64,000 nucleotides of DNA from an uncultured virus (IMG/VR IMGVR_UViG_3300033069_001715) (IMGVR_UViG_3300033069_001715), one strand, 5' to 3'. Shown: positions 6,437 to 62,495, numbered from the stretch's first letter. The notes: a model not told the origin generated them from the letters alone. Numbers and translations are program-made.

Positions 6437-6635
6437 GTTGCCACCCGCCCATTCGCTCTAACGCTTCGTAAGGATTGGCTCCGTAATCAACGCCGTACGT
6501 CGGAGTGATCGATAGCTCTTTGACTGGAGCTACAGATGCACCCGCAGACTTACAGCTTGGTTTTGCGACAGCGCTGTCTCGACGCTCTAGCTGAAGCTCA
6601 GGCCTTTGAAAGGACCAGTTCTTATTATCGCTCAT
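6417..6635 (-). CDS. Small hypothetical protein
   Basis: Overlaps both neighbours (ATGA coupling upstream); contains the 16-bp repeat. Confidence 0.5.
   Translation of the reverse strand: MSDNKNWSFQRPELQLERRDSAVAKPSCKSAGASVAPVKELSITPTYGVDYGANPYEALERMGGWQHGRKGS
6565..6580. repeat. Dispersed 16-bp near-palindrome, copy 1 (GCGACAGCGCTGTCTC)
   Basis: Exact copy, reverse orientation, inside a CDS. Confidence 0.95.
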
Positions 6636-7483
6636 CGAATAACCGGGTAGCTGTAAATGACGTGCTTGGTGTTAACTCGAGCTACAGGAGCACTGGCCAT
6701 CAGCTCGACCGCTCCGAGTCTAACAGTGGTCGTCATTGGATTGCCAATCACCCATCGCTCATCAGTGTTGGCATCCACCCAAACATCGCCTGGAAACACC
6801 TGCGGGATGTGTAGCCAGGTAAAGCGATCGATCGGTCCATCCTGATTCCAGCCGGCCTCGAAAGTGAAGTTCTCTGAGACCTGAGTCTGAGAGCCTTCAA
6901 CAAAGAAGCAATTGGTCACCTGCTGAAAACCATCAATGAATCCAGCATCGAAACAAGTCAGGCACTGGGAGCGAATCTTTTGACGACCGTCGCGATCAGT
7001 GCAGTCCGGGCAAAGCTGTCCCCAACGGCTCCGCTTGAGCAAATAGCCCTCCCGAAGCTCACCGGTCTTGCAACGCTCATACCAGCGGCGAACCGCCTCT
7101 AGGTATGGCGTTGTTAGCATCTTGGGAACTGTATCAAAAACGTGCTGAATGGGAGATGCAGTAATGTTACCTAAGGCATCTCGAACATTGATTCGGTAGT
7201 ACAGCGTGTAGTTGGAACCCTGAACCAGCTGCTGCGGCACGGTGAAGCTGTTGGCTACTGCTGAAAACGGCATAATCTCGACCCACGACCCAGCTGCGGA
7301 CCGTGAATACTCGATGTTGACCTCCAGCGGTGGTGTTAGATTTACCACGCTGGGCATCAACGTCAGATCCCAGGTAATAACTGTTCCAGCTCGCGTCAGC
7401 GGAGTGATCCGCATCACCTTTGACTTGCGAGCGTCGCAAGCGGCATCAGCTGCACATGAAGGCGTTGTAGGACAGTTGCTCAC
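6632..7483 (-). CDS. Putative neck/head-closure protein with CxxC motifs
   Basis: YLLKRSRWGQLCPDC...QCLTCFDAGF; GTG start at 7483 follows the upstream stop at 7485. Confidence 0.55.
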   Translation of the reverse strand: MSNCPTTPSCAADAACDARKSKVMRITPLTRAGTVITWDLTLMPSVVNLTPPLEVNIEYSRSAAGSWVEIMPFSAVANSFTVPQQLVQGSNYTLYYRINVRDALGNITASPIQHVFDTVPKMLTTPYLEAVRRWYERCKTGELREGYLLKRSRWGQLCPDCTDRDGRQKIRSQCLTCFDAGFIDGFQQVTNCFFVEGSQTQVSENFTFEAGWNQDGPIDRFTWLHIPQVFPGDVWVDANTDERWVIGNPMTTTVRLGAVELMASAPVARVNTKHVIYSYPVIR

Positions 7484-7484
7484 G

Positions 7485-8576
7485 TTACGCCCCTGGGATT
7501 GGAATTGGATTAGACAGTGCACCTCGAAGTGCCTCACCAGCTAGTGCTGGAGCGTTCTCCACTGTTTCTTTTGCTACGGCTTTACCACTGGCTCCTACGT
7601 GCTGTTTGTCGCCATACTTCTTGTCGTAGTAAGCCTTGAACCGCTTCCACTTCTTGGAACCCACAAGCTTCTTGAGCTGCTCCTGAACATCTCGGTCATC
7701 GCTCTTTTGCCAGGCCTTACCGATTCTGGCTCCACCTACAACGCCCAAGGAACCGCCTAAGGCACTACCGCCCAGCGACAGAGCGATCGGAAGTCTTCGG
7801 GCTAGTACCCTGGATAGCGTTGAATCTGATCCTTCGAGTTTAGTGGCTAGAGCCAGGCCGCCTAGTGCTCCACCTACGCCACCAGCCAGTCCGCCCAAGG
7901 CACCGCCCCAGTATGTTCCCAAGGCTGATGGCTTGGAGTGCGTTCGCTCGTTAAGAACCTCAGCCACAAACTTGGGATCAGCCTTTGTCTTCTTAGCACC
8001 GCTTATCAGCGCGTCTGTTCCCTTATTCCAGGCCGCGTGCTCCTTCCATAGCGTAGTAAACGGAGCGATTCGGTAAACGTCAGCAGCGGTGTTGCGTAGT
8101 GCCCGTCCGATGTAATTCTCAGGAAGTCGGTAGTCGTTGTAGTCGATCGCATGGCCTAGCTCATGCATACCGACAGAAAGATTTGCCCATGGGTTGGTGA
8201 CACGATCAGTCAGTGAGTTGTACAGCGGCTCAGTGTCGTAGCGATCAGCCTCGTATTTAGAGCCAGCTGCACCCGCCCAGGCCAGAGGTGTTCCGATTAG
8301 GCCAAGGCGAGGGTTGCTCATCGCTCGGTCGTAGTTCTCGCTGACAGTAGAAAGTCCAGGGACGTAACTGGTGTTGTCCAGGCTTCCATTGGGAGCCCCG
8401 GCGCTCATGATCGCCAGAAGCTTCTTGACCTTGCGAATATCGGGCCTGCCTCGGTTGGGAATGTTAGAAAGCACCGTACCTTCAAACGTGTTGGCGCTCA
8501 CCCGCTTATCGTTGACGGTCTGGTAGTTGGGCGACAACGAAGCCGCTAGCTTGCTAACTTTGGCTGGATCTAACAT
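7485..8576 (-). CDS. HExxH zinc-metallopeptidase-like domain fused to glycine-zipper helices
   Basis: VGMHELGHAID plus downstream KEHAAW; C-terminal GGALGGLAGGVGGALGG helices. Confidence 0.65.
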   Translation of the reverse strand: MLDPAKVSKLAASLSPNYQTVNDKRVSANTFEGTVLSNIPNRGRPDIRKVKKLLAIMSAGAPNGSLDNTSYVPGLSTVSENYDRAMSNPRLGLIGTPLAWAGAAGSKYEADRYDTEPLYNSLTDRVTNPWANLSVGMHELGHAIDYNDYRLPENYIGRALRNTAADVYRIAPFTTLWKEHAAWNKGTDALISGAKKTKADPKFVAEVLNERTHSKPSALGTYWGGALGGLAGGVGGALGGLALATKLEGSDSTLSRVLARRLPIALSLGGSALGGSLGVVGGARIGKAWQKSDDRDVQEQLKKLVGSKKWKRFKAYYDKKYGDKQHVGASGKAVAKETVENAPALAGEALRGALSNPIPIPGA

Positions 8577-8583
8577 GAGTGCC

Positions 8584-9840: not shown

Positions 9841-9845
9841 AAAGA

Positions 9846-9874: not shown

Positions 9875-9911
9875 CAAGAGCAATCGGTTTTTTGTCAGCG
9901 ATATCGTGATC

Positions 9912-10310: not shown

Positions 10311-10321
10311 GGTTAACCTCT

Positions 10322-10823: not shown

Positions 10824-10844
10824 AATTGGGTCTATCGAGGGAAA

Positions 10845-11879
10845 CTACTCGATAGTTACACAGCCCTCGGGCGTGCAGATAGTTCTGGACGTGCTCCGCT
10901 GCGGAGTCATGGCGTCGATCATGTTGCGAACCGGAGCCATTGCAGTGGCAACCGGAGCAATCTGCATCGGAGTGGCATACATCTGAGTTGGAGCACTGTA
11001 CTGAACTGGAGCCATTGAGTACGGCGAAACGATCGCTCCGTCATTAGCTACAGGCTCACATCCACAATCAGGTACGCCAACGCTTTGCATAGGAGCTACC
11101 GAATACGATGGGGCTACCGAGCTGACTGGCGAAACGATGCGACTATCACGTCGATTGGCGACTGCTTTTCGAATAGGACCACGAACAGGAACTGCGACCT
11201 GAACGTTGGAGTAACTTCCAGTGCAACCACCACTCTTAACAGCTCGATTAACAGTTCTGTACGGCTGAGCTCGAACTGCTTGAACAGTCTGAACAGGAAC
11301 AGCTTGCATTACCGGCTGCGAGTACTGAACAGGAGCAGCTTGCGAGTAGCTTCCGTTACTTCCACCACTGCGAACAGCCTGGTTGTAACGAACAGTCTGC
11401 GTGTACTGAACTGGGGCGCTGTAGGAGTATTCAACTGGAGCACTGTAGGAGTACTGGACAGGTGCTGCCTGGGAGTAACTGCCATTGCTGCCACCACTCT
11501 TAACAGGTGCTGCCTGGGAATAGCTACCGTTACTTCCGCCGCTCTTGACCGGAGCAGCCTGAGAGTAACTTCCATTGCTGCCACCACTCTTAACAGGTGC
11601 TGCTGGCGTAGGTACAACCGGAGTTTCAGTTACTTCAGCTACGACGTCGTCAGTGGGAACCGGTGAAACAATCTTGTCGTCATACCACTTGGCGAAATGG
11701 AACTGGTTAGACTCTAAACGACCCAGACCGGAGACTACTCCGTCGACGCGGGCGTCAACAATCCACTCAGATGTATCTGCGGCCTGACGCTTAACGGTTG
11801 GTTTTGTCTTGTCGCCAGCTTTCATCATAAACGACGACATGGCCACCAAGGCCAGCACTACGATAGTAAATCGACTCAT
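10845..11879 (-). CDS. Secreted low-complexity repeat protein
   Basis: N-terminal signal peptide; AAPVKSGGSNGSYSQ repeats; GPIRKAV and C-terminal CTPEGC. Confidence 0.7.
   Translation of the reverse strand: MSRFTIVVLALVAMSSFMMKAGDKTKPTVKRQAADTSEWIVDARVDGVVSGLGRLESNQFHFAKWYDDKIVSPVPTDDVVAEVTETPVVPTPAAPVKSGGSNGSYSQAAPVKSGGSNGSYSQAAPVKSGGSNGSYSQAAPVQYSYSAPVEYSYSAPVQYTQTVRYNQAVRSGGSNGSYSQAAPVQYSQPVMQAVPVQTVQAVRAQPYRTVNRAVKSGGCTGSYSNVQVAVPVRGPIRKAVANRRDSRIVSPVSSVAPSYSVAPMQSVGVPDCGCEPVANDGAIVSPYSMAPVQYSAPTQMYATPMQIAPVATAMAPVRNMIDAMTPQRSTSRTICTPEGCVTIE
11458..11603 (-). repeat. Coding tandem repeat, 3 x 45 bp (AAPVKSGGSNGSYSQ)
   Basis: Identical peptide units with synonymous DNA differences; further degenerate copies near 11340-11370 and 11215-11240. 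Confidence 0.85.
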
Positions 11880-13605: not shown

Positions 13606-14325
13606 TTACTTCTTTTTCTTCAGCTTCTTGGCTGCCGCGTCGATTTTAGCAGTGGCCCCATCAACATCATAACTCACGCGGGAGTTGGCCATGATGTCAC
13701 CCATTCTGCCCTCAAGCTTTTCGGTCATTACTTGAGAGAGTTCCTCCATGAAAGCATCAGCGGACGAATTGAAACGCTCGGCGAACTCCTTGTTGATCCA
13801 CTCAGCTCGGTCCTCGTCCTTTTCAAACTTCTGCTTACCGGCGAGCTTCATGATCTCCATCTTTGACTGCCAATCAGCAGCGTGCAGACGGTAAAGCGCA
13901 ATGGCTGCAGCGGCGGCGTGATCGTCACTGGTCACAACGACATCAACGGGCGAAACAATGCGGTCATCACCTGAGCCAGCATCAGGTTCAACCTCAGCCG
14001 AGTCGCCACCCCGCCAGTTCTCAATGAACTGTTTGCCGACAAAGTTGTAGATGATAATCAGGCCTAGGGCAGCGATGACCAACATCTGACCCCACTTCAT
14101 GATCGCACCAGTGGGGATGGAAAGGGTGACTTGTTTGTTCACGGTAGCAGGTCCTTCGGAAATTGGCTGCTGCACCGACTCGACTAAAGTCTCGGCCGCA
14201 ACAGTTGGAGTTGAGACAGCGCTGTCGCTAACTGGGGTTGGCTCCACATACACCGGCCTGGCTGGAGGCTGAGGAAGTGGAGCTGAAATCGGTTGCACAC
14301 GTTTTGTTTGTCGCTGAATGGCCAT
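13606..14325 (-). CDS. Single-pass membrane protein
   Basis: Pro-rich N-terminus, TM helix (MLVIAALGLIIIYNF), helical C-terminal part. Confidence 0.6.
   Translation of the reverse strand: MAIQRQTKRVQPISAPLPQPPARPVYVEPTPVSDSAVSTPTVAAETLVESVQQPISEGPATVNKQVTLSIPTGAIMKWGQMLVIAALGLIIIYNFVGKQFIENWRGGDSAEVEPDAGSGDDRIVSPVDVVVTSDDHAAAAAIALYRLHAADWQSKMEIMKLAGKQKFEKDEDRAEWINKEFAERFNSSADAFMEELSQVMTEKLEGRMGDIMANSRVSYDVDGATAKIDAAAKKLKKKK
14213..14228. repeat. 16-bp near-palindrome, copy 2 (GAGACAGCGCTGTCGC)
   Basis: Exact copy inside a CDS (encodes SDSAVS). Confidence 0.95.
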
Positions 14326-14332
14326 GGGGAGG

Positions 14333-14647
14333 TTAAGCCTTATTTGCTTTCCACTGCTTGTAGACACTGTACAGGATCATCAGAATCTTGATGACCAAGA
14401 TTATTGTAGTGATTGATCCGTAAGTTTTCTGCGCCTGAGGCTCCTCAAGTGAAGCTTTTAGTTCGTCCCCATCCTCACTGGTCGGAAACTTCGCCTCGGC
14501 TATCTCCATGATCTTGCCGTAGTGCGAGTGAAGAACCTGCAGCTCTTCCTCTGAAAAGAGCGACTCGTCAACGAGGCTCTCAAGCACCTTTTGAACGTTT
14601 CCTCGCCTTTGAATGCGAGCCTGACGTCGATCTCGTAGCAGTCCCAT
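14333..14647 (-). CDS. Small protein with C-terminal TM helix (holin-like?)
   Basis: ITTIILVIKILMILYSVY hydrophobic segment. Confidence 0.55.
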   Translation of the reverse strand: MGLLRDRRQARIQRRGNVQKVLESLVDESLFSEEELQVLHSHYGKIMEIAEAKFPTSEDGDELKASLEEPQAQKTYGSITTIILVIKILMILYSVYKQWKANKA

Positions 14648-18653: not shown

Positions 18654-21206
18654 CTAATTCCCTCCGGGGATTGAATAGTTCTTTCTACGAACCAAACCAA
18701 AGGCACGTAAATCGGATTGTGGTGAATGGTGTGTCAGGCAAAGTTCAATGGCTGCAAACTTCATCACTACTTCCGGTAACGATTCATGCGTTGCAGCTGT
18801 TTTGAGTGTTTCGAAACTTTGCTCATTAGCGGCGGCAAGCAGTGATGCTCGGTTGATTTGTTTCAAATCTATAGACGCCACTTTCGCCGCGGCAAATTTT
18901 CTTGCAGAATTCTCAATTAAGTGTGCGAGCTTTTCGGCCTGAGCAACAGCATAGGGAAGCTTACCAGTGAGCCGAAGCCTCTGATAAAGGTCTGGAAGGA
19001 ACATCGCGTACTTCTGAGCCTGACCCTCGCTGATACCTGAGTGCTTGCACAATCGCTCAAAGCTGATGTAGCTACCGTTTCGAAGAGCTTGAGACAGCGC
19101 TGTCGCGGTAACTGTGTGATTGACCGAATCGAGATCCCTGGTATCGGCGTACGATGCGCTGGCAATCTTGCAGAACCCGAAGTCATAACCTGAGAAATCG
19201 CCACGCCTATGAGCAGCTTCCATTTCAGCCAGCTTATTTGCCAAACAGAATAGGCTTCGTGACAGTGGCGATTCCTCAATGTTAGGAATCTGATCAAACG
19301 CAAACTCGGCGACCTTGGAGTTACTCTTGAGATCACGATAGAAGTCGCCAACAGGAAGAAGAACTCCGTTGGCGATTGGGTCTGCTCCGGTCTTTACCTT
19401 GGAGATGTCGTAGAAGGTGTTGTGAGGATTGTCGACGTACTGAAGCTGTCCACTGGATGCCATCTTGAGCATTCCATTGAGACAACCAAACATGTTGCAA
19501 CTGCCGCCCTCTTTCTTGGACATGCAGCGATCTTTAGGCTTGGGAGCCTTGTGATTACAGGTACTACAGTTATGCACTGCAATACCCTCGATAACATAGC
19601 TCTCATCATCTGCAACCGAGATGTTGTAAACAACAGTAGAGTTGACTTCAACCTGTCGCTGCCTAACTGGATAAGCAATGTAATTCGCGCCGTCATGCGT
19701 ATACCGCAAAGCACGAGGAGCTGGACTACGAGTATCAAAACCTTTAGCCTTAACGCTCTCGGCAAGCTGCCACAGCTCACTACAGGCGATGTTTACCCAG
19801 AAAACCTCTCTAAGTTCGCCCTCACTATATGTAGACCTCGCCCACTCAGACCTAAATGGAGCCGGTAAGCCAGCAGACAGACACAACAAATGGAGTCCAT
19901 GCAGCAAACCTCGGTTTGTTCCGGTTATTCTCGCGCTGCCCTTCTTGCTATCTACACTGCCGTCTGTATCTAGCATTCCAGCAACAAACGCAAGCTTTTC
20001 CTCTTTAGACGCGGTAAACAAGTAGTCTGGTATTCGCTTTGAGTTGCCTGCTTCTCCGCAAAGCGATAAAACCTTACTGGCGAATTCTCGATCATATACG
20101 TTCAACGCTACGTAGTTCTTTGCCTGTTCGCTGTATCTCCTAGGTTGGTTTTTCGCAAACTTAGCAAGATATAGCTCTAGTCGCTCAACGACACTCAACA
20201 AACGACGGTCACAAGCGAATCCCAAACCCATCACTTTGTAATCGCCGTTCTTCTTTCTCCCACTTCGTTGACGAATACGAAATCCGTCGCCACAGAACGC
20301 ACCTAGCAAATACGCCCACTGCAGCCTCTCTGCGTTATCACATTCCGCTGTAGATTCGACTGGATACAGCAAATAATCCCCAACCTCCACCTCAACAGCC
20401 GGTATCCATAATGGCTCAGCGTTTCTCCAATACTTTCGCAAACGCCCACTCGCATCTCTAACGCTATCGGCGGTGAGAACCAGGTACGGGTGCTCCCGTG
20501 TTGATCGCACACCCGACAAAGACGCAGCAGAAAGCGTAACCATCTCGCCACAATATTTACGCCGCATCGTACAAGTGACTGGCTGCCACTGCGCTGTGTG
20601 TGTTAATACAATATCTCCCAGTCGCACGTCAGCAATCCTCCGATAACCTGCCGCGGTCAGTATTAAGCGGTCGGCCTCGAAACAGACGTCGAACGGAACA
20701 AGACTACCCATCGAAACTGGGAAGTATCCGTGCTTGAGAAGTTCTTGGATCTCCTCGTCAGCCTCTTTGGCGCCTTCACCGCCTAGAGCAGCAGCGACCT
20801 TGGCACTGCCGTAGTACTCAGTGATTAGCTCAACGATCCCGTCGGAATCGCGATACCTGGCTAGCTTGACACTTCCGTAGTGTGGACCTTTGGATTGGTG
20901 CTGACGATAGGCCTTTGCGTGCCGTTCGAATGTGCCAACGTCGTTTCTCAACGCCTTCTCACTGAAACCGTCGCCCCAACGATTGGGTCCGTACCTTTCA
21001 GAGCACCCCATCGCTAGCTTGTGGACGTAGAAGCAATCAGGGTGCAGAGACAACTTGGAAAAGAAGTGAGCTGTCTCAGGAGACATGAACTCCTCTGCCG
21101 CCTTGGCATCGGCTCTGCCTAGTCCAGTTGAAGCTACTTTTATCTGATGCTGGGAGCCGCTGACGCCCGACCAGCAATCAGGAGCGAAGATCTTTGTTTG
21201 TGTCAT
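18654..21206 (-). CDS. Prohead maturation protease with LAGLIDADG intein
   Basis: N-extein AYRQH...PVSMGSLVPFDV joins C-extein CSTCNH (SMG serine motif followed by CxxC); located in the head module. Confidence 0.7.
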   Translation of the reverse strand: MTQTKIFAPDCWSGVSGSQHQIKVASTGLGRADAKAAEEFMSPETAHFFSKLSLHPDCFYVHKLAMGCSERYGPNRWGDGFSEKALRNDVGTFERHAKAYRQHQSKGPHYGSVKLARYRDSDGIVELITEYYGSAKVAAALGGEGAKEADEEIQELLKHGYFPVSMGSLVPFDVCFEADRLILTAAGYRRIADVRLGDIVLTHTAQWQPVTCTMRRKYCGEMVTLSAASLSGVRSTREHPYLVLTADSVRDASGRLRKYWRNAEPLWIPAVEVEVGDYLLYPVESTAECDNAERLQWAYLLGAFCGDGFRIRQRSGRKKNGDYKVMGLGFACDRRLLSVVERLELYLAKFAKNQPRRYSEQAKNYVALNVYDREFASKVLSLCGEAGNSKRIPDYLFTASKEEKLAFVAGMLDTDGSVDSKKGSARITGTNRGLLHGLHLLCLSAGLPAPFRSEWARSTYSEGELREVFWVNIACSELWQLAESVKAKGFDTRSPAPRALRYTHDGANYIAYPVRQRQVEVNSTVVYNISVADDESYVIEGIAVHNCSTCNHKAPKPKDRCMSKKEGGSCNMFGCLNGMLKMASSGQLQYVDNPHNTFYDISKVKTGADPIANGVLLPVGDFYRDLKSNSKVAEFAFDQIPNIEESPLSRSLFCLANKLAEMEAAHRRGDFSGYDFGFCKIASASYADTRDLDSVNHTVTATALSQALRNGSYISFERLCKHSGISEGQAQKYAMFLPDLYQRLRLTGKLPYAVAQAEKLAHLIENSARKFAAAKVASIDLKQINRASLLAAANEQSFETLKTAATHESLPEVVMKFAAIELCLTHHSPQSDLRAFGLVRRKNYSIPGGN
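19091..19106. repeat. 16-bp near-palindrome, copy 3
   Basis: GAGACAGCGCTGTCGC exact, inside a CDS (encodes ATALS). Confidence 0.95.
19569..20684 (-). mobile_element. Intein with LAGLIDADG homing endonuclease (372 aa)
   Basis: CFEAD start, TREHPY, motifs YLLGAFCGDG and FVAGMLDTDG, end IAVHN followed by Cys. Confidence 0.92.
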
Positions 21207-26749: not shown

Positions 26750-28087
26750 TTAAGCCTCACTTCTTTCTGGTTTGGAATCCCGCTCAAGCTTGCGAATGGC
26801 TGCTAGGTCCATCGCCGAAGCGTTGTTCTGAAGATACTGACGAAGCACGCTTCGCATGGTTGCTGGATTCTCCAGTGCCCGAGGAGCATAGTTCGCTACC
26901 TCGTTGTAGGCTCCAAGAACCTCATGTTCTGGCGTTGTGGAGATGACGGGATCGTCGACCATCAACTGCTGAAGGGCGGTTCGACTGCGAATCGCTGATA
27001 GGTTAGCTTCGTGCTGCGGAGCGCCCAGCTGAACCATAAATCGGTCCTCGTCACTGCTACCGGGTGCCTTCTTGTCTTCGGCTGGTTTGGAGAGATTGGC
27101 CAGTTGTGAGGTCAGGAACATCGAGGTGACATTAGCGACCTTCTCGACATGCTCAGCCTGCTGATCAGCTAAACTTTGTGAGCCAACAACCAAAGCTGCG
27201 TTCTTGATTCCACCGTCAACCAAGCATGTCTTGATGATGTAAGCCAGCTCCCTGCATCTGGCACTTTCGGCTCCAAGTCCGGGAAGCTGCTCATAGAGCT
27301 CTTTGGCAGCTGCTGCACTCTTGGCGAACAGTTCAACCGCGTGATGCGACTCTTGAGACAGCGCTGTCGGAAGCTGCTCTACCTGGCCAAACGAAGCCTG
27401 CTTGTGGGTAGGTAGGAATTGTGTTGCCCAGCCAACAGCCTCTTGTGCTGCGTCAGAAAGCTGCGGATGCTGTGAAGCGACAAAACGGAACTGCTGCAAG
27501 AACGACTCACCCATCGAAGCTGTCTTCTTGCGAAGTTCCTCAGAAGCACAACCGCGGGCGATCTGATAGTTCATGACCAGGCTCGCGACCTTTCGCTGGG
27601 CTACCTGATACCTCTGATCGATGTGCTCGAGTTCTCGATGAGCCGCTTTGAGGCCTAGCCCGTGATAAAGACCATGTGAAGGATCTTTTATTGGAGCGAC
27701 AGGAGCGGCGGCGACCTTCTTGGCAACCGGGATAGCGGCTGTCGGAGTACTAAGCAGCTTTTCAACCATCGGCATCGAAGCAACCTTAGCGGCTGACGCT
27801 GCGGCGCTGCGGCCTTCCTGAAGCTCGGCCAGGTCCTGTTTGACCAAAGCCGGATCAACAACATTAACGCTCGAAAGCTTGGTAACCAGATCATCGGCTC
27901 CAACTCGCTCTCCAATGGAAGCTGTTCGGTTGAATAACTGACAAAGGCGATCGATTTGATCGGGCAAGAGCGACTGAGCAGCAGCGACCTTGACAATAGC
28001 CGTACGCGGGAGAGTCCCGCTTTCGGTGAGGCTCAATACCTCATTGACCGCTCGAGCAAGAAAATTTGTAGACATTTGCGCCGGCAC
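26750..28087 (-). CDS. Helical head/core protein
   Basis: 445 aa, Ala-rich, ~10 K-x-A motifs. Confidence 0.6.
   Translation of the reverse strand: MPAQMSTNFLARAVNEVLSLTESGTLPRTAIVKVAAAQSLLPDQIDRLCQLFNRTASIGERVGADDLVTKLSSVNVVDPALVKQDLAELQEGRSAAASAAKVASMPMVEKLLSTPTAAIPVAKKVAAAPVAPIKDPSHGLYHGLGLKAAHRELEHIDQRYQVAQRKVASLVMNYQIARGCASEELRKKTASMGESFLQQFRFVASQHPQLSDAAQEAVGWATQFLPTHKQASFGQVEQLPTALSQESHHAVELFAKSAAAAKELYEQLPGLGAESARCRELAYIIKTCLVDGGIKNAALVVGSQSLADQQAEHVEKVANVTSMFLTSQLANLSKPAEDKKAPGSSDEDRFMVQLGAPQHEANLSAIRSRTALQQLMVDDPVISTTPEHEVLGAYNEVANYAPRALENPATMRSVLRQYLQNNASAMDLAAIRKLERDSKPERSEA
27355..27370. repeat. 16-bp near-palindrome, copy 4 (1 flank mismatch)
   Basis: GAGACAGCGCTGTCGG. Confidence 0.9.
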
Positions 28088-38787: not shown

Positions 38788-38817
38788 AAAAGAGGCTCTG
38801 GCCTCTTTTTTTAGCTA
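38788..38817 (+). terminator. Intrinsic terminator with TTTTTTTAGCTA tail
   Basis: AAAAGAGGC-TCTG-GCCTCTTTTTTTAGCTA. Confidence 0.8.
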
Positions 38818-39932: not shown

Positions 39933-39992
39933 GATTAACCACTGCGACTGTAGGCTCGTAAGGTCCTCAGCATAACAAATAACCAACCCCTG

Positions 39993-41832: not shown

Positions 41833-43957
41833 CGCCTTGACACCACTTACGGATTAGCTCCTGCTGGTTCTGCAGTCCCAATGCCCAGACCACATACTTG
41901 GTTTGGTAATCAACTGCACCCCTTCCAACTGGAATGCTAACAGTCACATCAGCCACTGTACCAGGTGTAGCTTTGAGTGAGTGCCCGAAACCGTACATTT
42001 GCTTCATGCCGTGAAGCTTGAAGTAAATGTATTGACTAAGCACTGTCGGCCTCTTGACACGGAAGCATGTCCGGTCGCGGCTGACCAAAAACGGCTCAGT
42101 ATGATACTCCAAGTTTGCTCCAGCACTCCCGTCACCGTTGGCGGCAAAAGAAATAACTGGCTCACTGGTGCTCGCACGAATAAGCTTCTCAGCAATCACA
42201 CTGGTGTCGACTCGCTGGGCGTCGATATACGCCAAGATATCCTTGCCCGCACTGTAAAGCGGATAACCATCACTAGGTCGCACGCATCGCATGCCCCACC
42301 AAACAGTCTTAGCCCAGCCAGTCTTATGATGGATGAACTCGAAGTATTCGTCATCGCCCAGGCATACGTCCTGAAACTCCAGCTTTTTTCCGTCTGGTTT
42401 CTGAGACAGCGCTGTCGTTCTAATCACGTCCGTCAGTTTCTTGACCGCGTCTGGATACTCCGAGGCGGCAATTGTTGGACTGTCGTCGACAACGTCTAGC
42501 TGTCGCAGCTCGTCCATAGTCCAGAATCGCTGCGGCGACCAATCACCCTCTAGGAATCTTTGAGCCGGCACAACCTTGACGCCTGCGCTACATGGGGTCA
42601 GGCCCTCGTAGTACCAGCTATTAAACGCCTGCACCACACGAGAAAGATCATTTCGATCGATCGGAAGTCGATACAGATCGCGACTCTCGCCAATCTCCGC
42701 CACAACAGCGGTGAACACTGGGCTGGTTTGTACTCTTGGCTCAAGTCCAACCTTCTTGCTGACGATCAGAATGCACGTCTTCTTGTCCGTGGCGTAGAAC
42801 GTTCGCGGCGGCAAGGCAATCACGCCGTTAACCTCCACTCGCTGCGATAACTGCTCAAGATACTTAGTCTGCAGCAGCAGCCCATCAGGAACTACAACAA
42901 TCGCCTGTCCACCTGGGGCTAAATGTTCGGCGATCCAGTCCATAGCTAGAGCTTCAGTGCCTCGGCCGTGATGACTGTAAAAGGCATCGATCTCACCGGC
43001 CTCGAGGGATTCGCGAACTACGGCCGACCCCCGGTAGTTGTAAGGAGGATTAGACACAATGAGGTCAAACCGCATCGCTGGGAATTCGCCGAAAGTTCCC
43101 AGCGGCGTGCGGACGAGCTTGAACATGCTATGCGCAAGAGCTCCGAGTGAGGCAATCGATTCTTTATTGACATGACTAGCCAGATGAACGGCCAGATTGA
43201 ACTTGGCCATCGCAATGGTTTGGTAGTCATCAGAATCTTCGCCGCCTCGATCCATGCCAAACAGCGAGATCTTCGGCAAGAACGTCGGACCCTTGGGCGT
43301 GTAATCGGCTTTGGCGACCTCCGAGCGACTGAGCGTCTCAAGAAGTAGTCCGCCAACGCCGCAAAACGGATCACACACTTTGTACTTCTGACCCGCTTTG
43401 AACAGCTTCACGCACGACATGTCGAGCATAGCTCTAACTACAACCCGCGGGGTGAAGAACTGACCCAGCAAACGACTCTCAGCACTTTGCCTGAGGAACA
43501 TCTCGTAAAGTCTTGACTTATCGTAGTCGCCGTCACTAAACCAGTTGGGCGGCACTTCTTTGAGCTGGACGATCAACTGAGCAAACAGCGGAGCATGCAC
43601 AATACTAGGCCCGTCAGGACCAACAAACAGCGACTGCTCTGACACAATCGCTTCACCAATGATGCTACGACCAAAACAATCGATCATCTCTGGTCGGCAC
43701 TTGCGAACATAGTGCGTCAGCGCCGCTGTTTGTGAGCTTTCCAGGTGCTCACGCACTGAATCGAAGTTGCAGTACTTACCCAGAACCTTGGTGTCACTGA
43801 GAAACCGAAAGAGCATCAGCTCCATCACGTTGTACAGGCATTTCTGCGGCTGTTTGCCTGTGTGCTCCCAAATCACTTGCCACAACGATTTAGCCCAACT
43901 CTCCATCCGTCCGTCACCTTGCCATCCGCGATTCGAAATGTGGCCACTAATTCCCAC
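41804..43957 (-). CDS. N6-adenine DNA methyltransferase (HsdM-like) fused to a specificity (TRD) domain
   Basis: GQFFTPR, DPFCGVGG (motif I), SNPPY (motif IV), IVVVPDGLL; C-terminal HsdS-like GYPLYSAG...ANGDGSAG. Confidence 0.85.
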   Translation of the reverse strand: MGISGHISNRGWQGDGRMESWAKSLWQVIWEHTGKQPQKCLYNVMELMLFRFLSDTKVLGKYCNFDSVREHLESSQTAALTHYVRKCRPEMIDCFGRSIIGEAIVSEQSLFVGPDGPSIVHAPLFAQLIVQLKEVPPNWFSDGDYDKSRLYEMFLRQSAESRLLGQFFTPRVVVRAMLDMSCVKLFKAGQKYKVCDPFCGVGGLLLETLSRSEVAKADYTPKGPTFLPKISLFGMDRGGEDSDDYQTIAMAKFNLAVHLASHVNKESIASLGALAHSMFKLVRTPLGTFGEFPAMRFDLIVSNPPYNYRGSAVVRESLEAGEIDAFYSHHGRGTEALAMDWIAEHLAPGGQAIVVVPDGLLLQTKYLEQLSQRVEVNGVIALPPRTFYATDKKTCILIVSKKVGLEPRVQTSPVFTAVVAEIGESRDLYRLPIDRNDLSRVVQAFNSWYYEGLTPCSAGVKVVPAQRFLEGDWSPQRFWTMDELRQLDVVDDSPTIAASEYPDAVKKLTDVIRTTALSQKPDGKKLEFQDVCLGDDEYFEFIHHKTGWAKTVWWGMRCVRPSDGYPLYSAGKDILAYIDAQRVDTSVIAEKLIRASTSEPVISFAANGDGSAGANLEYHTEPFLVSRDRTCFRVKRPTVLSQYIYFKLHGMKQMYGFGHSLKATPGTVADVTVSIPVGRGAVDYQTKYVVWALGLQNQQELIRKWCQGDVASTIVFD
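42403..42418. repeat. 16-bp near-palindrome, copy 7 (1 flank mismatch)
   Basis: GAGACAGCGCTGTCGT in the M-S linker. Confidence 0.9.
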
Positions 43958-45389: not shown

Positions 45390-45740
45390 TTAACCTTCTA
45401 GTTCAATCCCCAACATCTTGGCGTACTTATCGTAGTCAATGTCCGCGGCCACGTAAGGCAGTATGACCTCGAAAAAGCTCTTCAACGGCAGCGGCCAGCA
45501 GTCCACGATCTCGAAAAAGATCAGTGCCGCCAGCAACATCGCGTCTTTAGCGGCAGGCAGATCCTTTGCTACCTCCGCCTTGAAAAGCAGAATCGCCTCT
45601 TGAGAGCGTACGTGGGTGCAGCTGAACTGCTCTCCGCCGTCTTCGACGAAGAATCCATAAAACACTTGCGGGGGCTCATGGAATCCTGCGAAGTAAACCT
45701 GCTCACTGGCGTAATAAGCCTGCATGACACATTCTTTCAT
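45390..45740 (-). CDS. Hypothetical protein
   Basis: 116-aa ORF, co-oriented. Confidence 0.5.
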   Translation of the reverse strand: MKECVMQAYYASEQVYFAGFHEPPQVFYGFFVEDGGEQFSCTHVRSQEAILLFKAEVAKDLPAAKDAMLLAALIFFEIVDCWPLPLKSFFEVILPYVAADIDYDKYAKMLGIELEG

Positions 45741-45749: not shown

Positions 45750-45765
45750 GAGACAGCGCTGTCGC
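45750..45765. repeat. 16-bp near-palindrome, copy 8
   Basis: GAGACAGCGCTGTCGC exact, intergenic. Confidence 0.95.
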
Positions 45766-46265
45766 TAAGCAGATAGCTCTCTACCAACAATCAGCTGCCC
45801 GTCGCGGACTAGCACATAGTAAAGAGGCGACCAGCCATTATGCTTGAGGAAGTTTCTGAAATCACCATACTTGATGACCATACTGCGATACTCCTCAAAC
45901 GGCGATGGACAAATCACCTTGGCGGCGTACTCAACGTCCTCAACACTCAGTGATCCGACTTCCCGCTTAACGGTGAACCCAGTTCCGATTCTCTGATGTG
46001 GAACGTGCTTGGTGCTCAAGGTGAATCCCCAAATATTTAGCTCCACGTAAGCGAAGTTGCCGTCTTTGTGAGCCTGGAAATAGCGGGACTTACCAAAGGG
46101 CGGCTTTCGCCAAAACACGTCCCAGCCTGCAGCGATCAGCTCCTTAGCCAAGCTGTCTAACTCAGGCTCTTCGAATAGCTGCGTAGCGCGAGCTGCAACT
46201 TCTTCATCCGTCAAATCCCTAGTCGGATCTCTGTAGAACTTATCGTCAGGTGGTTGTTGGCTCAT
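45765..46265 (-). CDS. Hypothetical protein
   Basis: 166-aa ORF with RBS. Confidence 0.55.
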   Translation of the reverse strand: MSQQPPDDKFYRDPTRDLTDEEVAARATQLFEEPELDSLAKELIAAGWDVFWRKPPFGKSRYFQAHKDGNFAYVELNIWGFTLSTKHVPHQRIGTGFTVKREVGSLSVEDVEYAAKVICPSPFEEYRSMVIKYGDFRNFLKHNGWSPLYYVLVRDGQLIVGRELSA

Positions 46266-51909: not shown

Positions 51910-51939
51910 GCGGGTTGAGACAGCGCTGTCGCAACCCGC
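51910..51939. repeat. 16-bp near-palindrome, copy 9, with extended inverted flanks
   Basis: GCGGGTT-GAGACAGCGCTGTCGC-AACCCGC, intergenic. Confidence 0.95.
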
Positions 51940-53942: not shown

Positions 53943-54139
53943 TCTCGCATGAACCCCAGAAAGTAATGTTCCTTGGCGGGCCCAAGTCTAAACGATGCAG
54001 ACGGACTGCCGCAGATCTCTTGAGCCTCCTCCAATGTATACGTCTCTTCTCCGAATCGCTCCCGCGGCTTGCCAGACTCGGGCGACCAGAACTTCATGAT
54101 GATGTAGCGGTCCTCTTCGTCTTCATCGTAGTCACTCAT
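53939..54139 (-). CDS. Small hypothetical protein
   Basis: MSDYDEDE..., overlaps both neighbours. Confidence 0.5.
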   Translation of the reverse strand: MSDYDEDEEDRYIIMKFWSPESGKPRERFGEETYTLEEAQEICGSPSASFRLGPAKEHYFLGFMRE

Positions 54140-54611
54140 CGCTGGTATCCACTTGATGCAATGACTGTTCCTCCAAAAATGTCCGCACGTGTGCAGGTCC
54201 ATACTTTGCGGACAGCGCTACTGCTGTCACCATCGCGAGTACCGCATCGGGATCTTCCCACTCAGTGGACTCCCACATGCAGACCTCACCCTCGCCGTCG
54301 ATAACGTGCACCGATTCATGGGTCGTGAAAACCCCTGGAACCAACTCATGCAGGCCGTTAATGAACTCCCATACCTCAGGGTCAGTAACAATGACCACAT
54401 TCTTCGTGCTGAGGTAGTTAACGATATCCGTCTGCATCTGGCCTGCAGCGTGGGCATCAACAACCAGGGAGCTATGCAAGCATTCCATCAAACCTGAGTT
54501 GATAGCTACAACGTGCCCCGTTGATGTTGGGTAAGTCTTGACCTCAACTCGCTTGATCCCGTCATCAACCATCTGATCGAGCATCAGACAAATGTGATTG
54601 GCTAGTGCCAT
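54132..54611 (-). CDS. Hypothetical protein
   Basis: AGGAG RBS. Confidence 0.6.
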   Translation of the reverse strand: MALANHICLMLDQMVDDGIKRVEVKTYPTSTGHVVAINSGLMECLHSSLVVDAHAAGQMQTDIVNYLSTKNVVIVTDPEVWEFINGLHELVPGVFTTHESVHVIDGEGEVCMWESTEWEDPDAVLAMVTAVALSAKYGPAHVRTFLEEQSLHQVDTSDE

Positions 54612-54624: not shown

Positions 54625-54640
54625 GCGACAGCGCTGTCTC
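54625..54640. repeat. 16-bp near-palindrome, copy 10
   Basis: GCGACAGCGCTGTCTC exact, intergenic, just upstream of an RBS. Confidence 0.95.
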
Positions 54641-58744: not shown

Positions 58745-58960
58745 TCAATCCTGAACAACCACGTAGTAACGACCGTCTGAGTCTGTTCCCAGACTCTCTC
58801 CGTCTTTGAGCTCCGGCGGACCAATAGAGATCTCCTGGGCGGCTATCTTCTCACCAATCAATTCACCTAGCTCCTCTTCGGAACAGGTTTCCAGATCTCG
58901 GTAATAGTCAATAGCCGCCCCGAAGCTCACAAAATTCGGCGTGCCGAATCTAGTCGCCAC
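58745..58960 (-). CDS. Small hypothetical protein
   Basis: Overlaps the upstream stop. Confidence 0.5.
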   Translation of the reverse strand: MATRFGTPNFVSFGAAIDYYRDLETCSEEELGELIGEKIAAQEISIGPPELKDGESLGTDSDGRYYVVVQD

Positions 58961-59657
58961 TGGTTTGATCTTCCGACTCTTCTACGACAGTGCCGTCGAC
59001 GGTGACGCCAATGGGTGACGTTCCCAAGTACAAATGCCCGCCAGCTACGTCTTGCACTGCAGCCAGAACGTTGGCGTAATGCTCTGGGTTAGCAGCCAGC
59101 GTTTTGGCAGTAAACGCCGCCAGCAGTTTCGAAGCCATCTCGTCGCGATCGGCGATCATCGCCTCTCGCTCAGCAATGTAGCGGTACGCTGCGTTGTCCT
59201 GCTTGATCAGCGAGTTATAAGCTGCCCGTTTAGCTTCTGGCACTGTATACGTGGCCTGTAGCTGAAGACCTTCGGCTGCCGCCTCGAAACAATCAGACAG
59301 CTCAACACCGTTAATGTCGACGCAGTTACCGTCATCGTCTGTTTCGATCGCAACAAAAATCTTTACGTTACCATGCGGCTCAGACAGAGACAGCGAGTAA
59401 AACCCGATACTCCAATCGGCGAACTCGTCATGGAACTCACACAGTGCCTCCATGACTGACACAAACTTCGCCGAATATCGTTTGGTAATATCAGCCTTGA
59501 TCTCGAGGTTCAACTCCTCTCGCAAGGTCTCTATCTGCGATCGCAACTGCTCTCGCTCTCTCGACTTAGCTTCGATCTCCAGCTCCAGCTCGGCAACTCG
59601 CTGCACTACGAGCAGGTTTACGACCTCGCTGTTCCCAATTTGAATATTTAGACTCAT
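58950..59657 (-). CDS. Coiled-coil hypothetical protein
   Basis: Acidic, with heptad pattern. Confidence 0.55.
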   Translation of the reverse strand: MSLNIQIGNSEVVNLLVVQRVAELELEIEAKSREREQLRSQIETLREELNLEIKADITKRYSAKFVSVMEALCEFHDEFADWSIGFYSLSLSEPHGNVKIFVAIETDDDGNCVDINGVELSDCFEAAAEGLQLQATYTVPEAKRAAYNSLIKQDNAAYRYIAEREAMIADRDEMASKLLAAFTAKTLAANPEHYANVLAAVQDVAGGHLYLGTSPIGVTVDGTVVEESEDQTSGD

Positions 59658-59692
59658 ACTTCCGTTCCAGTTCTTGTTAATTGTGATAGTTC

Positions 59693-59706
59693 AGACAGCG
59701 CCGTCT
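59693..59706. repeat. Variant of the dispersed element (AGACAGCGCCGTCT)
   Basis: One core mismatch, intergenic right after a stop codon. Confidence 0.6.
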
Positions 59707-60926
59707 TAGATGTGGCAATCGACAATGGTGAGATAGTGATCGTTTGGAATGCTGTCGAAGATCTGCTTGAAAACCTTCGGCCAATCCTCAACCTCGTTGG
59801 TTGAAGTTCCAAACCAACCCATCTCACCGTTTTGCATCCACTTTCCGTCTTTGACAACCGCCCAAACCGTTAGCGGCTCGGCCTGCCGCACCCACTGCTC
59901 AATCGTCTGGCCCTTCAGCTCAGGCAATTGCCAAGTGGATTCCCAAACGTCTGCTGCGTACTTGGCGTCTTCAGGAAGCCACTCCAAGAACATGGATCGA
60001 TAAGCACCGCCCTTAGGTCTTTGATCCTCTGGCAAGGCCTTCCAGATCTCATGATGCTCCTCACACAGATGAATCGCCCGCTCCATCTCTGGTCGCGTGA
60101 CAACTCGCTGTTTCTTCTTGAGCACCTGGTCAATGCAGTCATCGAGCCACTTGTAGCCGTTGGACATCTGGAGGGCGTGCATGGCGTTGATATCCAAATC
60201 TCCCTTGCGGGAACTATCACAACGGCCCGGTATCCGTCCGTTGATGAAACCTGGATAGATCATGTCGATGATGTTGACAATAGCCTGCTCAAGTGAGGAC
60301 GACGCTCCGCAGGGAGCGTTGCTGATGAACTTGCCGGTGTAACGCCCGCCAACACTCCACCAATCCCACTGGGCGTTAGGATTGGTTCGCTTGATGACTC
60401 GTTGAACATCGCCGTTTTCGTCCAAACGGATGTAGCCGTACTTATGCTCCCCATCCAATTCTGGAGACTCAGCAGTCGCAATCGACTCATATCCTGTGTT
60501 ACTGATCACGAACTCCAAAAACGTCATCGCCTCGTTTAACTTCTTGTCAAGCTCAATAGCACCTTCTGGCAAGAAGTGAACTCTCGCGGCGTAGCCTCGG
60601 CCGTCACCCCAATCACGACTGGTCCAAAACAAACCATCGCCTTGCCCAGTTCCGGCGATCGGTCCGATCTTCTTGGACTCCTCTTCTGTCGGCACGCGAA
60701 AAAACTGATCATCCCATTTGACGTGCTCAGTGCCGTCAGCCAGCCGAATCATCGGCTGCGTCTCCCTCTCGTATTCATCCTGAAGCGATTGGGTTCGGTC
60801 TACGTCTACAACATATTCATTTCGCACACCAGTGCACTCGAACTCGTGATACGGTCCAAGCACCTTATCGAGAACCTTACCTGTTGGCGGCTCACTGGTG
60901 ACGACTAGAACTGAAAAGTGGCTCAT
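59706..60926 (-). CDS. Phage hypothetical protein (MSHF...NPNAQWDWW...VDCHI type)
   Basis: Recognisable motif pattern seen in phage proteins of unknown function. Confidence 0.65.
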   Translation of the reverse strand: MSHFSVLVVTSEPPTGKVLDKVLGPYHEFECTGVRNEYVVDVDRTQSLQDEYERETQPMIRLADGTEHVKWDDQFFRVPTEEESKKIGPIAGTGQGDGLFWTSRDWGDGRGYAARVHFLPEGAIELDKKLNEAMTFLEFVISNTGYESIATAESPELDGEHKYGYIRLDENGDVQRVIKRTNPNAQWDWWSVGGRYTGKFISNAPCGASSSLEQAIVNIIDMIYPGFINGRIPGRCDSSRKGDLDINAMHALQMSNGYKWLDDCIDQVLKKKQRVVTRPEMERAIHLCEEHHEIWKALPEDQRPKGGAYRSMFLEWLPEDAKYAADVWESTWQLPELKGQTIEQWVRQAEPLTVWAVVKDGKWMQNGEMGWFGTSTNEVEDWPKVFKQIFDSIPNDHYLTIVDCHI

Positions 60927-61390
60927 TGTTTAGAGTCCTCTGCTAAATCTTCTTTGATCGAGGCAACCGTTCTTTCAAGACGGGCCAGGCTCTCCCGTCG
61001 CTCCTTCAAAATTCGCTCCGCCTGATCAATGGATGACCGGGCCAACTGAAGCTGCACGTCGTAGAAGGCGATTCTGGCCTTCCGCTGGTCTGGATAGTAC
61101 TCACCGTCAAACCAGTCAGTAATGCTGCGATCATGGTGGTCTACGTCTAGGTAGTCAACAAAGCGAATGTGATCGCCTCGATGACAAACCAGAAGCTCGA
61201 TCCGACCTTGGGCGCCAACACCGTGATCAGCCCTCAGCTCATACATCACGTGGTCCTCATACTGGCGGACCCCGATAACGGAGAACTCCAGTATGTCCAT
61301 ACAGCAAGGTCGCCAAAGCCTGTCCTTGCATTTAAGCATTTCCATCAAGAAGCTCCGTTTGTGGGCCTTTGAGTCGACTGGCCTGCTCAA
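60923..61390 (-). CDS. Hypothetical protein
   Basis: C-terminal coiled coil; start uncertain. Confidence 0.5.
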   Translation of the reverse strand: MSRPVDSKAHKRSFLMEMLKCKDRLWRPCCMDILEFSVIGVRQYEDHVMYELRADHGVGAQGRIELLVCHRGDHIRFVDYLDVDHHDRSITDWFDGEYYPDQRKARIAFYDVQLQLARSSIDQAERILKERRESLARLERTVASIKEDLAEDSKQ

Positions 61391-62123
61391 GTCCCATCGT
61401 GTGCAGCATCAAATCAATCTGCGCTGCAACCTCAGTCCGGACCTGCTGAACCGTCTCCTCCATCTGCTCCTCCAACAACGTCTGCACAAAGGCGAAGTTC
61501 TTGGGGATATTTCCCAAACGACAGTCCAGCTCATGAAGAAGGGCTGTAACCTCTTTGAGCGTCGGTCGCTTGCCCTCTCTTTGCCAATTGGCAACGGTAT
61601 TCCGGATGTTGAACAGCGATTCGATAGCATCGCGACCTGCCGCTTTGATCCGCTCGGACGCGTCGTTAACGTCATCAACAAGATTCTCCGGCCCTTCAAT
61701 CATCTCACCGCAGAAACGCCCAAGTGTCGCCGGAACACCCTCGCCACCAAAGGACGTGATAAGGGTAGCGAACTGAGAGGCTGTCATGTACACCGTGATT
61801 ATCGTGCCACTCTCGTAGAGCCTGCGATTGCTACCGTCGCGGATGATCTCCTGAGCAGTATGAATGCTCAGCGATACATAGTGCTGATGATTGACCCTTG
61901 ACTGCCAAAGCACCGCACCGCTGCTGTGCGTACGATTGAGCCTAACTACCGCCTGGTAAGGGGCCTCGATTCGAGTCTGCCCCTTATCATCCACCGTCGT
62001 GCTGTGCGGCCTTACCGCTGCTCGGTACGACCGGAGCTCTTCAAACACCGCCTGAGCCTGGGCGGCGGTCAGCTTGTTAGCCGCCACCGCCTCCAGTGGA
62101 ACAAGCTTAGGCTGGGACATCAA
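61332..62123 (-). CDS. Phage hypothetical protein
   Basis: MTASQFATLITS.G.EGVPATL motif. Confidence 0.6.
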   Translation of the reverse strand: MMSQPKLVPLEAVAANKLTAAQAQAVFEELRSYRAAVRPHSTTVDDKGQTRIEAPYQAVVRLNRTHSSGAVLWQSRVNHQHYVSLSIHTAQEIIRDGSNRRLYESGTIITVYMTASQFATLITSFGGEGVPATLGRFCGEMIEGPENLVDDVNDASERIKAAGRDAIESLFNIRNTVANWQREGKRPTLKEVTALLHELDCRLGNIPKNFAFVQTLLEEQMEETVQQVRTEVAAQIDLMLHTMGLEQASRLKGPQTELLDGNA

Positions 62124-62463
62124 TATTCGCCCCAGGTAGTGCCTTCTCAGCCAATCGAGCTGCGCGACGAAACTGCCTCATCTTCCGATTGAACTTCCAT
62201 CGCTCCCACCAGGTCGAACCAGTGCGGCCCTCCCGGATTCCTCTCACCAAGTCCCGCAGTCGATTAGCCCAGTAATGAGCACGATTGGCCTGCATCTTAA
62301 ACTCGAACATGGCCGCAGCCAGCGAGTTCTTGAGGACAGCGTTTTCCTTTTCAAGCTCCTGGCAGCGGCGGTTAAGTCTTTGATTGGTTTCCACCATCTG
62401 CTGCCGAGAAGCCATACACAGCTTCCAACCTTCTTGAGGCTTTGCCCCTTGATTCTTACCCAT
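62107..62463 (-). CDS. Hypothetical coiled-coil protein
   Basis: AAGGAG RBS. Confidence 0.55.
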   Translation of the reverse strand: MGKNQGAKPQEGWKLCMASRQQMVETNQRLNRRCQELEKENAVLKNSLAAAMFEFKMQANRAHYWANRLRDLVRGIREGRTGSTWWERWKFNRKMRQFRRAARLAEKALPGANIDVPA

Positions 62464-62479
62464 TACTCTCTCCTTGTTT

Positions 62480-62495
62480 AAGACAGCGCTGTCGC
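62480..62495. repeat. 16-bp near-palindrome, copy 11 (1 flank mismatch)
   Basis: AAGACAGCGCTGTCGC, intergenic, upstream of an RBS. Confidence 0.9.

Follow-up and report, generated by a model that had tools for sequence, protein, structure and literature searches.

The uncultured phage IMGVR_UViG_3300033069_001715 (IMG/VR) is represented by a contig of 76,685 bp, of which a stretch of 64,000 bp was analysed (the window; about 12.7 kb lie outside it). The DNA is viral and has hardly any known relatives, and near-identical DNA was found in sequencing runs from wastewater, river, activated sludge and digester samples. Nearly every gene lies on the minus strand. A minority of the 75 open reading frames (ORFs) produced family hits in PHROG, Pfam or NCBIfam, the recognisable genes being those for two N6 DNA methylases, a NUDIX protein, an AAA ATPase, a MazG-like protein, three intein-bearing products and the C-terminal half of a beta-prime-like RNA polymerase subunit. 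Scattered among these genes is a short near-palindromic repeat, built on the perfect 12-bp palindrome GACAGCGCTGTC and listed copy by copy in Table 1. Judged by their sequence, the repeats are best read as LacI/GalR-type operators of high affinity whose specificity is that of GntR, the gluconate repressor of Pseudomonas.

Thirteen copies were counted, eleven of them perfect over the 12-mer and two with one mismatch, both reading GACAGCGCCGTC on the plus strand. In 100 dinucleotide-preserving shuffles of the window the same count averaged 0.30, with a maximum of 3, and none of the shuffles reached 13. The motif is also the commonest repeated word of the window among 10- to 14-mers and stands at the top of its repeat families. 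A first-pass annotation of this DNA had reported at least 11 perfect palindromes and one-mismatch variants at 36249 and 59693; the number is borne out by count and shuffles, and both variants exist, but the second 16-mer starts at 59692, so that its position was off by one. A search with the 16-mer at up to 3 mismatches added two doubtful sites only (2204 and 35934), which corresponds to the chance level (1.13 expected).

Table 1. Copies of the near-palindrome in the window. Each copy is named by the first position of its 12-mer; coordinates are those of the 16-mer unless otherwise stated, and the strand is that on which GCGACAGCGCTGTCTC is read.
Copy	12-mer	Coordinates	Strand	Sequence	Context
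6567	perfect	6565..6580	+	GCGACAGCGCTGTCTC, then GAC	in small ORF 6417..6635, encodes RDSAVA; 17 consecutive bases shared with PgntP footprint
14215	perfect	14213..14228	-		in ORF 13606..14367, encodes SDSAVS
19093	perfect	19091..19106	-		in intein-bearing ORF 18654..21206, residues 701-706 (ATALSQ), past the intein
27357	perfect	27355..27370	-	CCGACAGCGCTGTCTC	in ORF 26750..28087, encodes PTALSQ
31865	perfect	31863..31878	-		middle of ORF 30413..32779, encodes RDSAVS
36251	one mismatch	36249..36264	+	GCGACAGCGCCGTCTC	in beta-prime-like ORF 35906..38422, residues 720-725, just past the part aligning to bacterial beta-prime
38823	perfect	38821..38836	+		last codons of ORF 38811..39986; 3 nt from bidirectional terminator 38790-38817
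42405	perfect	42403..42418	-	ACGACAGCGCTGTCTC	in N6-methyltransferase ORF 41804..43957, residues 514-519, past the methylase domain (residues 149-448)
45752	perfect	45750..45765	-		intergenic, fills a 24-nt gap; overlaps TAG stop of 45765..46265; ends 9 nt before ATG of 45390..45740
51919	perfect	51910..51939 (extended palindrome), 51917-51932 (16-mer)	-	GCGGGTTG...CAACCCGC	in 30-nt extended palindrome, upstream of MazG-like gene
54627	perfect	54625..54640	+		intergenic, 32-nt gap; 13 nt before ATG of 54132..54611, GGAG ribosome site between
59694	one mismatch	59692..59707	-	AAGACGGCGCTGTCTG	degenerate (12/16 bases); start of 48-nt gap before 58950..59657
62482	perfect	62480..62495	-	GCGACAGCGCTGTCTT	intergenic, 36-nt gap; 16 nt before ATG of 62107..62463, AAGGAG ribosome site between

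When the copies are oriented by their flanks, conservation extends over 18 bp, GCGACAGCGCTGTCTC(A/G)A, and no further on either side. The unit amounts to a 16-bp palindrome with a single symmetric pair of positions that does not match (C in one half, T in the other), a break retained by 10 of the 13 copies; the copy at 59694 is weak. Nine copies are oriented along the minus (coding) strand and four along the plus strand, and a recount of the perfect copies agrees with the ratio of 8 to 3 given earlier. The tetranucleotide GCGC, though central in every copy, is strongly depleted all over the window (130 occurrences against 284 expected from trinucleotides), which may reflect avoidance of a host restriction system; 11 of the 15 AGCGCT sites of the window are motif copies. 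A link between the GTCTC of the motif and the 717-aa methylase was considered and rejected, the match to the Alw26I-type family reaching 23.7 bits against a cut-off of 353.5, and GTCTC not being enriched.

Gaps between copies range from 2572 to 8264 bp, with a coefficient of variation (CV) of 0.40. Equally even spacing was obtained in 0.07% of 200,000 random placements (P about 7e-4), and a smallest gap this large in 0.015% of them: the copies are over-dispersed, yet not periodic. The spacing of about 2.6-8 kb remarked at first reading is, on this check, more even than random. Eight of the 13 copies lie clearly within ORFs, where the motif is translated in two frames, as D-S/G-A-V in five cases and as T-A-L-S in three. 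A third frame (Q-R-C) occurs at 51919 only, where the start of the ORF is doubtful; unless translation really starts at the GTG at 51943, this copy is intergenic. The remaining four occupy intergenic gaps of 24-48 nt. In the small-gene region (44-64 kb) the copies occupy the short space that separates a stop codon from the ribosome site following it, as the first-pass annotation had described for the accessory region, and, wherever this can be judged, the ORF copies fall outside conserved domains.

The same annotation had concluded, from coding copies in the frames DSAV and TALS, that selection acts on the DNA, and the eight ORF copies support it. Three observations point to selection at this level: the use of two frames, the retention of flank bases at synonymous positions of the ORF copies and a block conserved in a close variant. 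Copies at the positions of 51919 and 45752 recur in two metagenome contigs, L139 (93.4% identity to the window) and L143 (95.8%), respectively. The sequence of the window is retained in L139 without change over 43 nt centred on the motif, while the flanks of this block have diverged (8 mismatches and a gap in 27 columns on one side, 9 mismatches and 6 gap columns in the next 50 on the other).

As RNA, the 16-mer folds weakly (-3.0 kcal/mol). Within 40-nt contexts, 12 of the 13 copies fold no better than shuffled sequences (z from -0.78 to +0.96), and in several of these contexts the palindrome's own hairpin is absent from the best fold; the exception is 51919, where the extended palindrome reaches -20.2 kcal/mol (z -3.4). 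No Rfam family matched. The RNA hairpin is thus too weak to matter, and the signal is read in double-stranded DNA. A role of the motif as a hairpin in processing, stability or translational control would suit the intergenic copies standing directly before ribosome sites, the strong structure around 51919 and three metagenome copies located 3-10 nt from terminator hairpins, but, given the folding energy, the twelve contexts no better than shuffles and the lack of an Rfam match, it is scarcely credible. Sites for dimeric proteins commonly take the form of a near-palindrome of this size (16-18 bp), and this part of the first-pass annotation is supported by the weakness of the RNA hairpin, together with the identity of the core to a footprinted operator of the LacI family.

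For GntR, the LacI-family gluconate repressor of Pseudomonas plecoglossicida JUIM01, DNase I footprints have been reported, on host promoters only; the protected sequences are CAAAGACAGCGCTGTCTCGACA (PgntP), GCGAGACAGCGCTATCTTACCC (PgnuK) and TAAGGTAGCGCTGTCTCAGGACAC (PgntR), and their consensus is AG-N2-AGCGCT-N-TCT (PMC12195362). The copy at 6567 and the PgntP footprint have 17 consecutive bases in common. The consensus unit of the phage fits 10 of the 11 specified positions of the GntR consensus in either orientation, and the 12-bp core is perfect in 11 of the 13 copies. The motif has the features of a LacI-type site, namely the palindrome, the central CG step and the AGCGCT core. A designed cre site containing the same 12-mer, TGACAGCGCTGTCA, was shifted by CcpA, another member of the LacI family, in an electrophoretic mobility shift assay (EMSA; PMC10992428). 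The GntR protein of P. aeruginosa is freed from DNA by gluconate and 6-phosphogluconate, as stated in two reports (PMC5902321; PMC12195362). It had been said that the motif matches no recognised consensus; this was wrong, its core being that of the Pseudomonas GntR operator. As far as a comparison of sequences goes, it is a new match and a specific one. Matches to the operator of PtxS, another sugar regulator of Pseudomonas, are not enriched in the window (4 against 2.85 expected).

The genome of Pseudomonas sp. JUb42 (G001) contains four perfect 12-mers. The first lies between a LacI-family gene and a gluconokinase-like gene, the second 20 nt before the gene of a GntP permease, the third upstream of a GAPDH gene and the fourth upstream of an aldehyde dehydrogenase gene. 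Of the genomes that contain two perfect 12-mers about 580-600 bp apart, four were examined (JUb42 and three further ones, G027, G069 and G121), and in all four the pair flanks the gluconokinase gene of the gntR-gntK-gntP locus. These sites read AAAGACAGCGCTGTCT(C/T), and one of them runs on as TCAA, as in the phage flank. At least one perfect copy is present in 92 genomes of a sample of 121 from the JUb42 genus, with 195 sites in total against 87 for a control palindrome and a maximum of 5 per genome; one unpublished genome, G100, is counted in this tally with one site. Some of the other recurrent sites in Pseudomonas genomes resemble conserved coding sequence rather than operators. The density of perfect cores in the phage (11 in 64 kb) is several hundred times that of these genomes. 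The 16-mer occurs once in each of at least 120 genome contigs, one of them from JUb42, and among the matches listed none in the other genomes adjoins gnt genes; among viral contigs, it was found once in each of 5, and the perfect 14-mer once in each of 40.

Neither a LacI nor a Peripla_BP domain was hit in the 75 window ORFs, and a tblastn search of the window with the GntR of JUb42 reached no better than E 0.3. Because the window encodes no LacI-type protein, we infer that the binder is the host's own GntR, the host then probably being a Pseudomonas-like bacterium. ParB, KorB, HTH and RHH families produced no Pfam, PHROG or NCBIfam hit in the same ORFs, which leaves the analogies with parS, matS and Noc sites, put forward in the first-pass annotation, without support. 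The gene it had proposed as the candidate binder, 28151..29116, had no family hit, and its look-alikes in the Atlas stayed below the meaningful level. The window, most of whose ORFs are without any family hit, yielded no family of phage repressors or integrases, and sequence searches of the PDB with 30413..32779 and 38811..39986 returned no match.

The main rival explanation is that a dimeric protein of the phage itself uses the sites, as its own operators or for condensation or partition. Such a protein might have an unrecognised fold within the window, where so many ORFs are without a family hit, or be encoded in the 12.7 kb outside it, possibly by a captured LacI-family gene; the likeness to GntR would then be coincidence, mimicry or shared descent. 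The flank asymmetry and the 18-bp length, which exceed what host operators share, speak for this explanation, and mycobacteriophage stoperators are dispersed operators read by the phage's own repressor. However, the ORFs scanned yielded no HTH, RHH, ParB or LacI hit, with nothing at 28151..29116, and the identity of 12-17 bases with a host operator would be unexplained unless the binder were a GntR homologue. We consider a phage-encoded binder unlikely, though one to be taken seriously.

The motif might also be a promoter or a pause site of a phage-specific or phage-modified RNA polymerase. ORF 35906-38422 (minus strand) corresponds to the C-terminal half of a bacterial-type beta-prime subunit, interrupted by an intein (rpoC model, E 1.9e-29; beta-prime chains in the PDB, down to 1e-21), and the motif is the sole strongly repeated word. 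Sigma-70-like promoters are nowhere enriched and are scarce in 1-40 kb according to two scans (4 against 10.8 and 4 against 11.4 in shuffles), a third giving 13 against 13.4. Against such a role stand the mixed orientation of the copies (9 and 4) despite nearly one-way genes, the location of eight copies within ORFs, at distances of 131 to about 1450 nt from the following start, and the three intergenic copies ending 9-16 nt before a start codon, with a ribosome site between. The catalytic DFDGD motif is absent from every frame of the window, so that the N-terminal half of beta-prime is either elsewhere or absent. Beside the copies no upstream element is conserved and sigma-70-like sites are not enriched. 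Taken together, a promoter or pause site is highly improbable. Clear intrinsic terminators occur in 1-40 kb, e.g. at 9845-9875, 14694-14716 and 2415-2438.

LacI-family repressors can block elongation from intragenic sites, as PurR does at purB and CcpA at intragenic cre sites. From this property, the one-way genes, the over-even sites untied to gene starts and the absence of a promoter, we propose, with a probability of about 0.38, that GntR of the host binds the phage genome at many points and blocks its transcription until released by gluconate or 6-phosphogluconate. Dimers of host GntR would bind the incoming DNA at each of the sites, strung along a single transcription axis every 2.6-8.3 kb and placed in gene gaps where possible, otherwise in tolerant stretches of ORFs. 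The bound repressors would form serial roadblocks to elongating RNA polymerase, with little middle or late transcription as the consequence. Gluconate or 6-phosphogluconate would lift all blocks together, and infection would proceed only in a host burning sugar. Among the functions listed in the first-pass annotation, transcription road-blocking is the one that fits best; segregation, compaction and stepwise ejection, also listed there, are no more than guesses. The phage may thus tie its own gene expression to the sugar-acid sensor of its host. It is a tentative idea, and one we would rather doubt than affirm, that a lytic phage wrote the GntR operator at least 13 times into its genome, ORFs of structural genes included, and that gluconate or 6-phosphogluconate opens and closes the whole programme in this manner, or possibly a transcription-driven entry of the genome.

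The same evidence for binding would serve a different function, in which replicating phage DNA soaks up GntR and thereby turns on the host genes for gluconate uptake and phosphorylation; the sites would then be an auxiliary metabolic function made of DNA, not of a gene. At least 13 strong sites per phage genome compare with no more than 5 perfect 12-mers per genome among the 121 of the Pseudomonas genus, and dispersed copies would be expected to be more stable than copies in tandem. A sink, on the other hand, needs neither even spacing nor alignment with the transcription axis, and would bring little: with gluconate present GntR is already released, and with gluconate absent an open transporter gains nothing. 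Titration is ranked below the roadblocks because the effector already opens the gnt genes whenever the substrate is present, and is in our view distinctly unlikely.

Several points weigh against roadblocks formed by host GntR. The 12-bp match to a published operator could be a coincidence, to which we assign, by judgement, a few per cent. The asymmetry kept by the phage sites, with GC to one side and TC(A/G)A to the other, exceeds the host gnt operators (AAA...T(C/T)), and is explained neither by a symmetric homodimer nor by the host sites. Known GntR operators overlap promoters, while eight of the 13 phage sites are within ORFs, with no conserved promoter adjacent. No operator array was found in the other viral contigs scanned with the 16-mer and the 14-mer, which leaves this phage as the single case. 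The true binding protein could be encoded in the 12.7 kb outside the window. As to the host, positions 1-20000 of the window had no CRISPR-like or prophage match in 401 genomes of the JUb42 genus (best E 4.6e-4, the chance level), and a 406-aa protein had no homologue in them. Protein sharing with Pseudomonas phages is weak (37% identity), and another protein is common equally to Vibrio and Aeromonas phages; such sharing narrows the field no further than phages of Gammaproteobacteria and other Pseudomonadota. Finally, self-repression without gluconate would halt the phage in hosts thriving on other carbon sources.

Parts of the stretch are contained in at least 20 runs from 10 studies; nine of the runs listed hold at least half of the sampled words. 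Scanning metagenome contigs with the 18-mer gave 23 single hits, and the search for close relatives found nothing beyond close variants of this phage. Three further contigs (L126, L145 and L147), of the same assembly series as L139 and L143 and with a G+C content of 0.475-0.518, about that of the window, carry the 18-mer 3-10 nt from a terminator made of a hairpin and a T-run, beside genes unmatched in the window; L145 encodes two proteins of phage families. They may be part of the genome outside the window, or alternative cassettes.

Contigs of four runs were placed on positions 27001-47000, which include six motif copies. Five of the 19 loose-end rows listed, from all four runs, fall within 6 nt of the edges of the copy at 45752; different strains carry different sequence beside this copy, since the contigs part there. 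The other five copies showed no such junction. The 18-bp unit could accordingly be, in the main, a linker or a small mobile module that marks the borders of exchangeable cassettes and spreads by copying of 18 bp, i.e. 6 codons. Besides the parting of contigs at 45752, this explanation is favoured by the presence of the same 18-mer beside unrelated genes in L126, L145 and L147, the phage-family proteins of L145, a unit length divisible by 3 and an asymmetry explicable by descent. It is opposed by the restriction of junctions to one of the six surveyed copies, by junctions of L143 that lie away from the motif and by flank bases kept at synonymous ORF sites, which indicate selection and not just descent; transposase and recombinase families had no hit among the window ORFs, and the identity to the GntR operator would be left unexplained. 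A mainly recombinational role is thus very unlikely.

A loose end at 38817 (run X2) was rejected as a strain junction, its letters following an identical inverted 20-mer at 2403-2422. Runs X2 and X12 contain a 34-nt insertion, able to form a hairpin, in the gap at 28104, and runs X4 and X13 a similar hairpin-forming word after a motif copy, at 45767; the hairpin-like words of the variant contigs are not above chance in the window. A second repeated word, TTTTTAGCTA, is present in four copies against 0.07 expected, at 2403-2412 (minus), 38808-38817 (plus), 39994-40003 (minus) and 41146-41155 (minus). Each of them is the tail of a G+C-rich terminator hairpin, two are within the identical inverted 20-mer and one adjoins the motif copy at 38821; TTTTTAGCTA may be a terminator joined to a start signal.

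Hint/intein signatures were also detected in 12274-13572 and 18654-21206 (minus strand), the latter also having a LAGLIDADG domain and the C-terminal splicing motif of an intein. Only two sizeable genes are on the plus strand, 38495-38785 and 49746-50519, neither with a family hit; the former is bracketed by the bidirectional terminator and a motif copy. Coding tandem repeats occupy 11208-11603, within ORF 10845..11879 (45-bp period, 3.2 copies, 75% matches, with looser copies upstream). No tRNA was found in the window. Relatives were sought, with no result, by megablast of positions 18000-38000 against a phage collection, by tblastn with the 550-aa protein encoded at 32800-34452 (minus strand), by protein-based scans of viral contigs and by a protein-alignment scan of metagenome contigs. 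One protein of the window is without company among 5.8 billion clustered proteins. For the 550-aa protein, HMMER found two partial relatives, P0003 and P0004, among 1.84 billion representatives, with 55-57% identity over about 150-180 residues; a stretch at residues 345-450, approximately, is common to many proteins of unrelated length.

Among known systems, the operators of the Pseudomonas gntR-gntK(gnuK)-gntP genes share with the phage motif the 12-bp core GACAGCGCTGTC, up to 17 consecutive bases of a footprint and the central CG step, and the 12-mer stands at both gnt-locus operators in each of the four genomes examined. The host, however, has 2-5 perfect 12-mers in 5-7 Mb, those checked being in promoters beside the regulator gene, whereas the phage has 13 copies in 64 kb, eight of them in ORFs, with no regulator gene in the window and with a GC flank that host sites lack. 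The stoperators of mycobacteriophage L5 and cluster A are short operators, present in dozens genome-wide and often located in short gaps by stop codons; they are thought to stop elongating polymerase, and are asymmetric, set in one orientation and read by the temperate phage's own immunity repressor. One short operator is dispersed over a phage genome in both cases, but the motif described here is palindromic, is found in both orientations (9 and 4) and has the operator sequence of a host repressor, and neither a repressor nor an integrase was found in the window. The intragenic operators of PurR (purB) and CcpA (cre) are, like many of the copies, located inside coding regions, where they block elongation and not initiation, though as single sites in single host operons, not as a series throughout a viral genome.

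KorB operators (OB) of plasmid RK2 and ParB-parS systems consist of about a dozen palindromes of 13-16 bp on a mobile replicon of 60 kb, through which one dimeric protein exerts global effects. Number, size and range over about 60 kb are alike; such systems, however, need a ParB or KorB gene on the element, of which the 75 ORFs show none, and their sequence is unrelated. The early-promoter stem-loops (PeSLs) of T4-type phages measure about 50 bp, combine a promoter with a stem-loop and are exclusively intergenic, at the borders of accessory genes. The motif likewise occurs at borders of variable genes and, at 45752, coincides with cassette exchange, but its unit is of 18 bp, contains no promoter and is also present in ORFs of structural genes. 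By these comparisons the motif is a LacI-type operator in its sequence, one that lacks the usual overlap with a promoter and a neighbouring regulator in the window. It would work most like stoperators and intragenic LacI-family roadblocks, yet is no stoperator; on the tests made, it is not an element of the parS/KorB type, a promoter or an RNA element.

It is known that phage promoters can contain one or a few binding sites for regulators of the host, LexA among them, and that in certain temperate phages sites for the phage's own repressor are dispersed. The literature searched on this theme had no report of an evenly spaced series of operators throughout a genome that would answer to a sugar-acid repressor of the host and be retained although it dictates residues of essential proteins. 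Should GntR not bind them, the motif would still be among the clearest dispersed DNA signals in a phage with hardly any known genes, and should lead to the binder. If, instead, host GntR does bind, an orphan phage would gain a testable host, and other phage genomes could usefully be screened for over-represented host operator words. The virus would then read the carbon metabolism of its host without a sensor gene of its own, and its infection would be gated by a metabolite through a borrowed host sensor.

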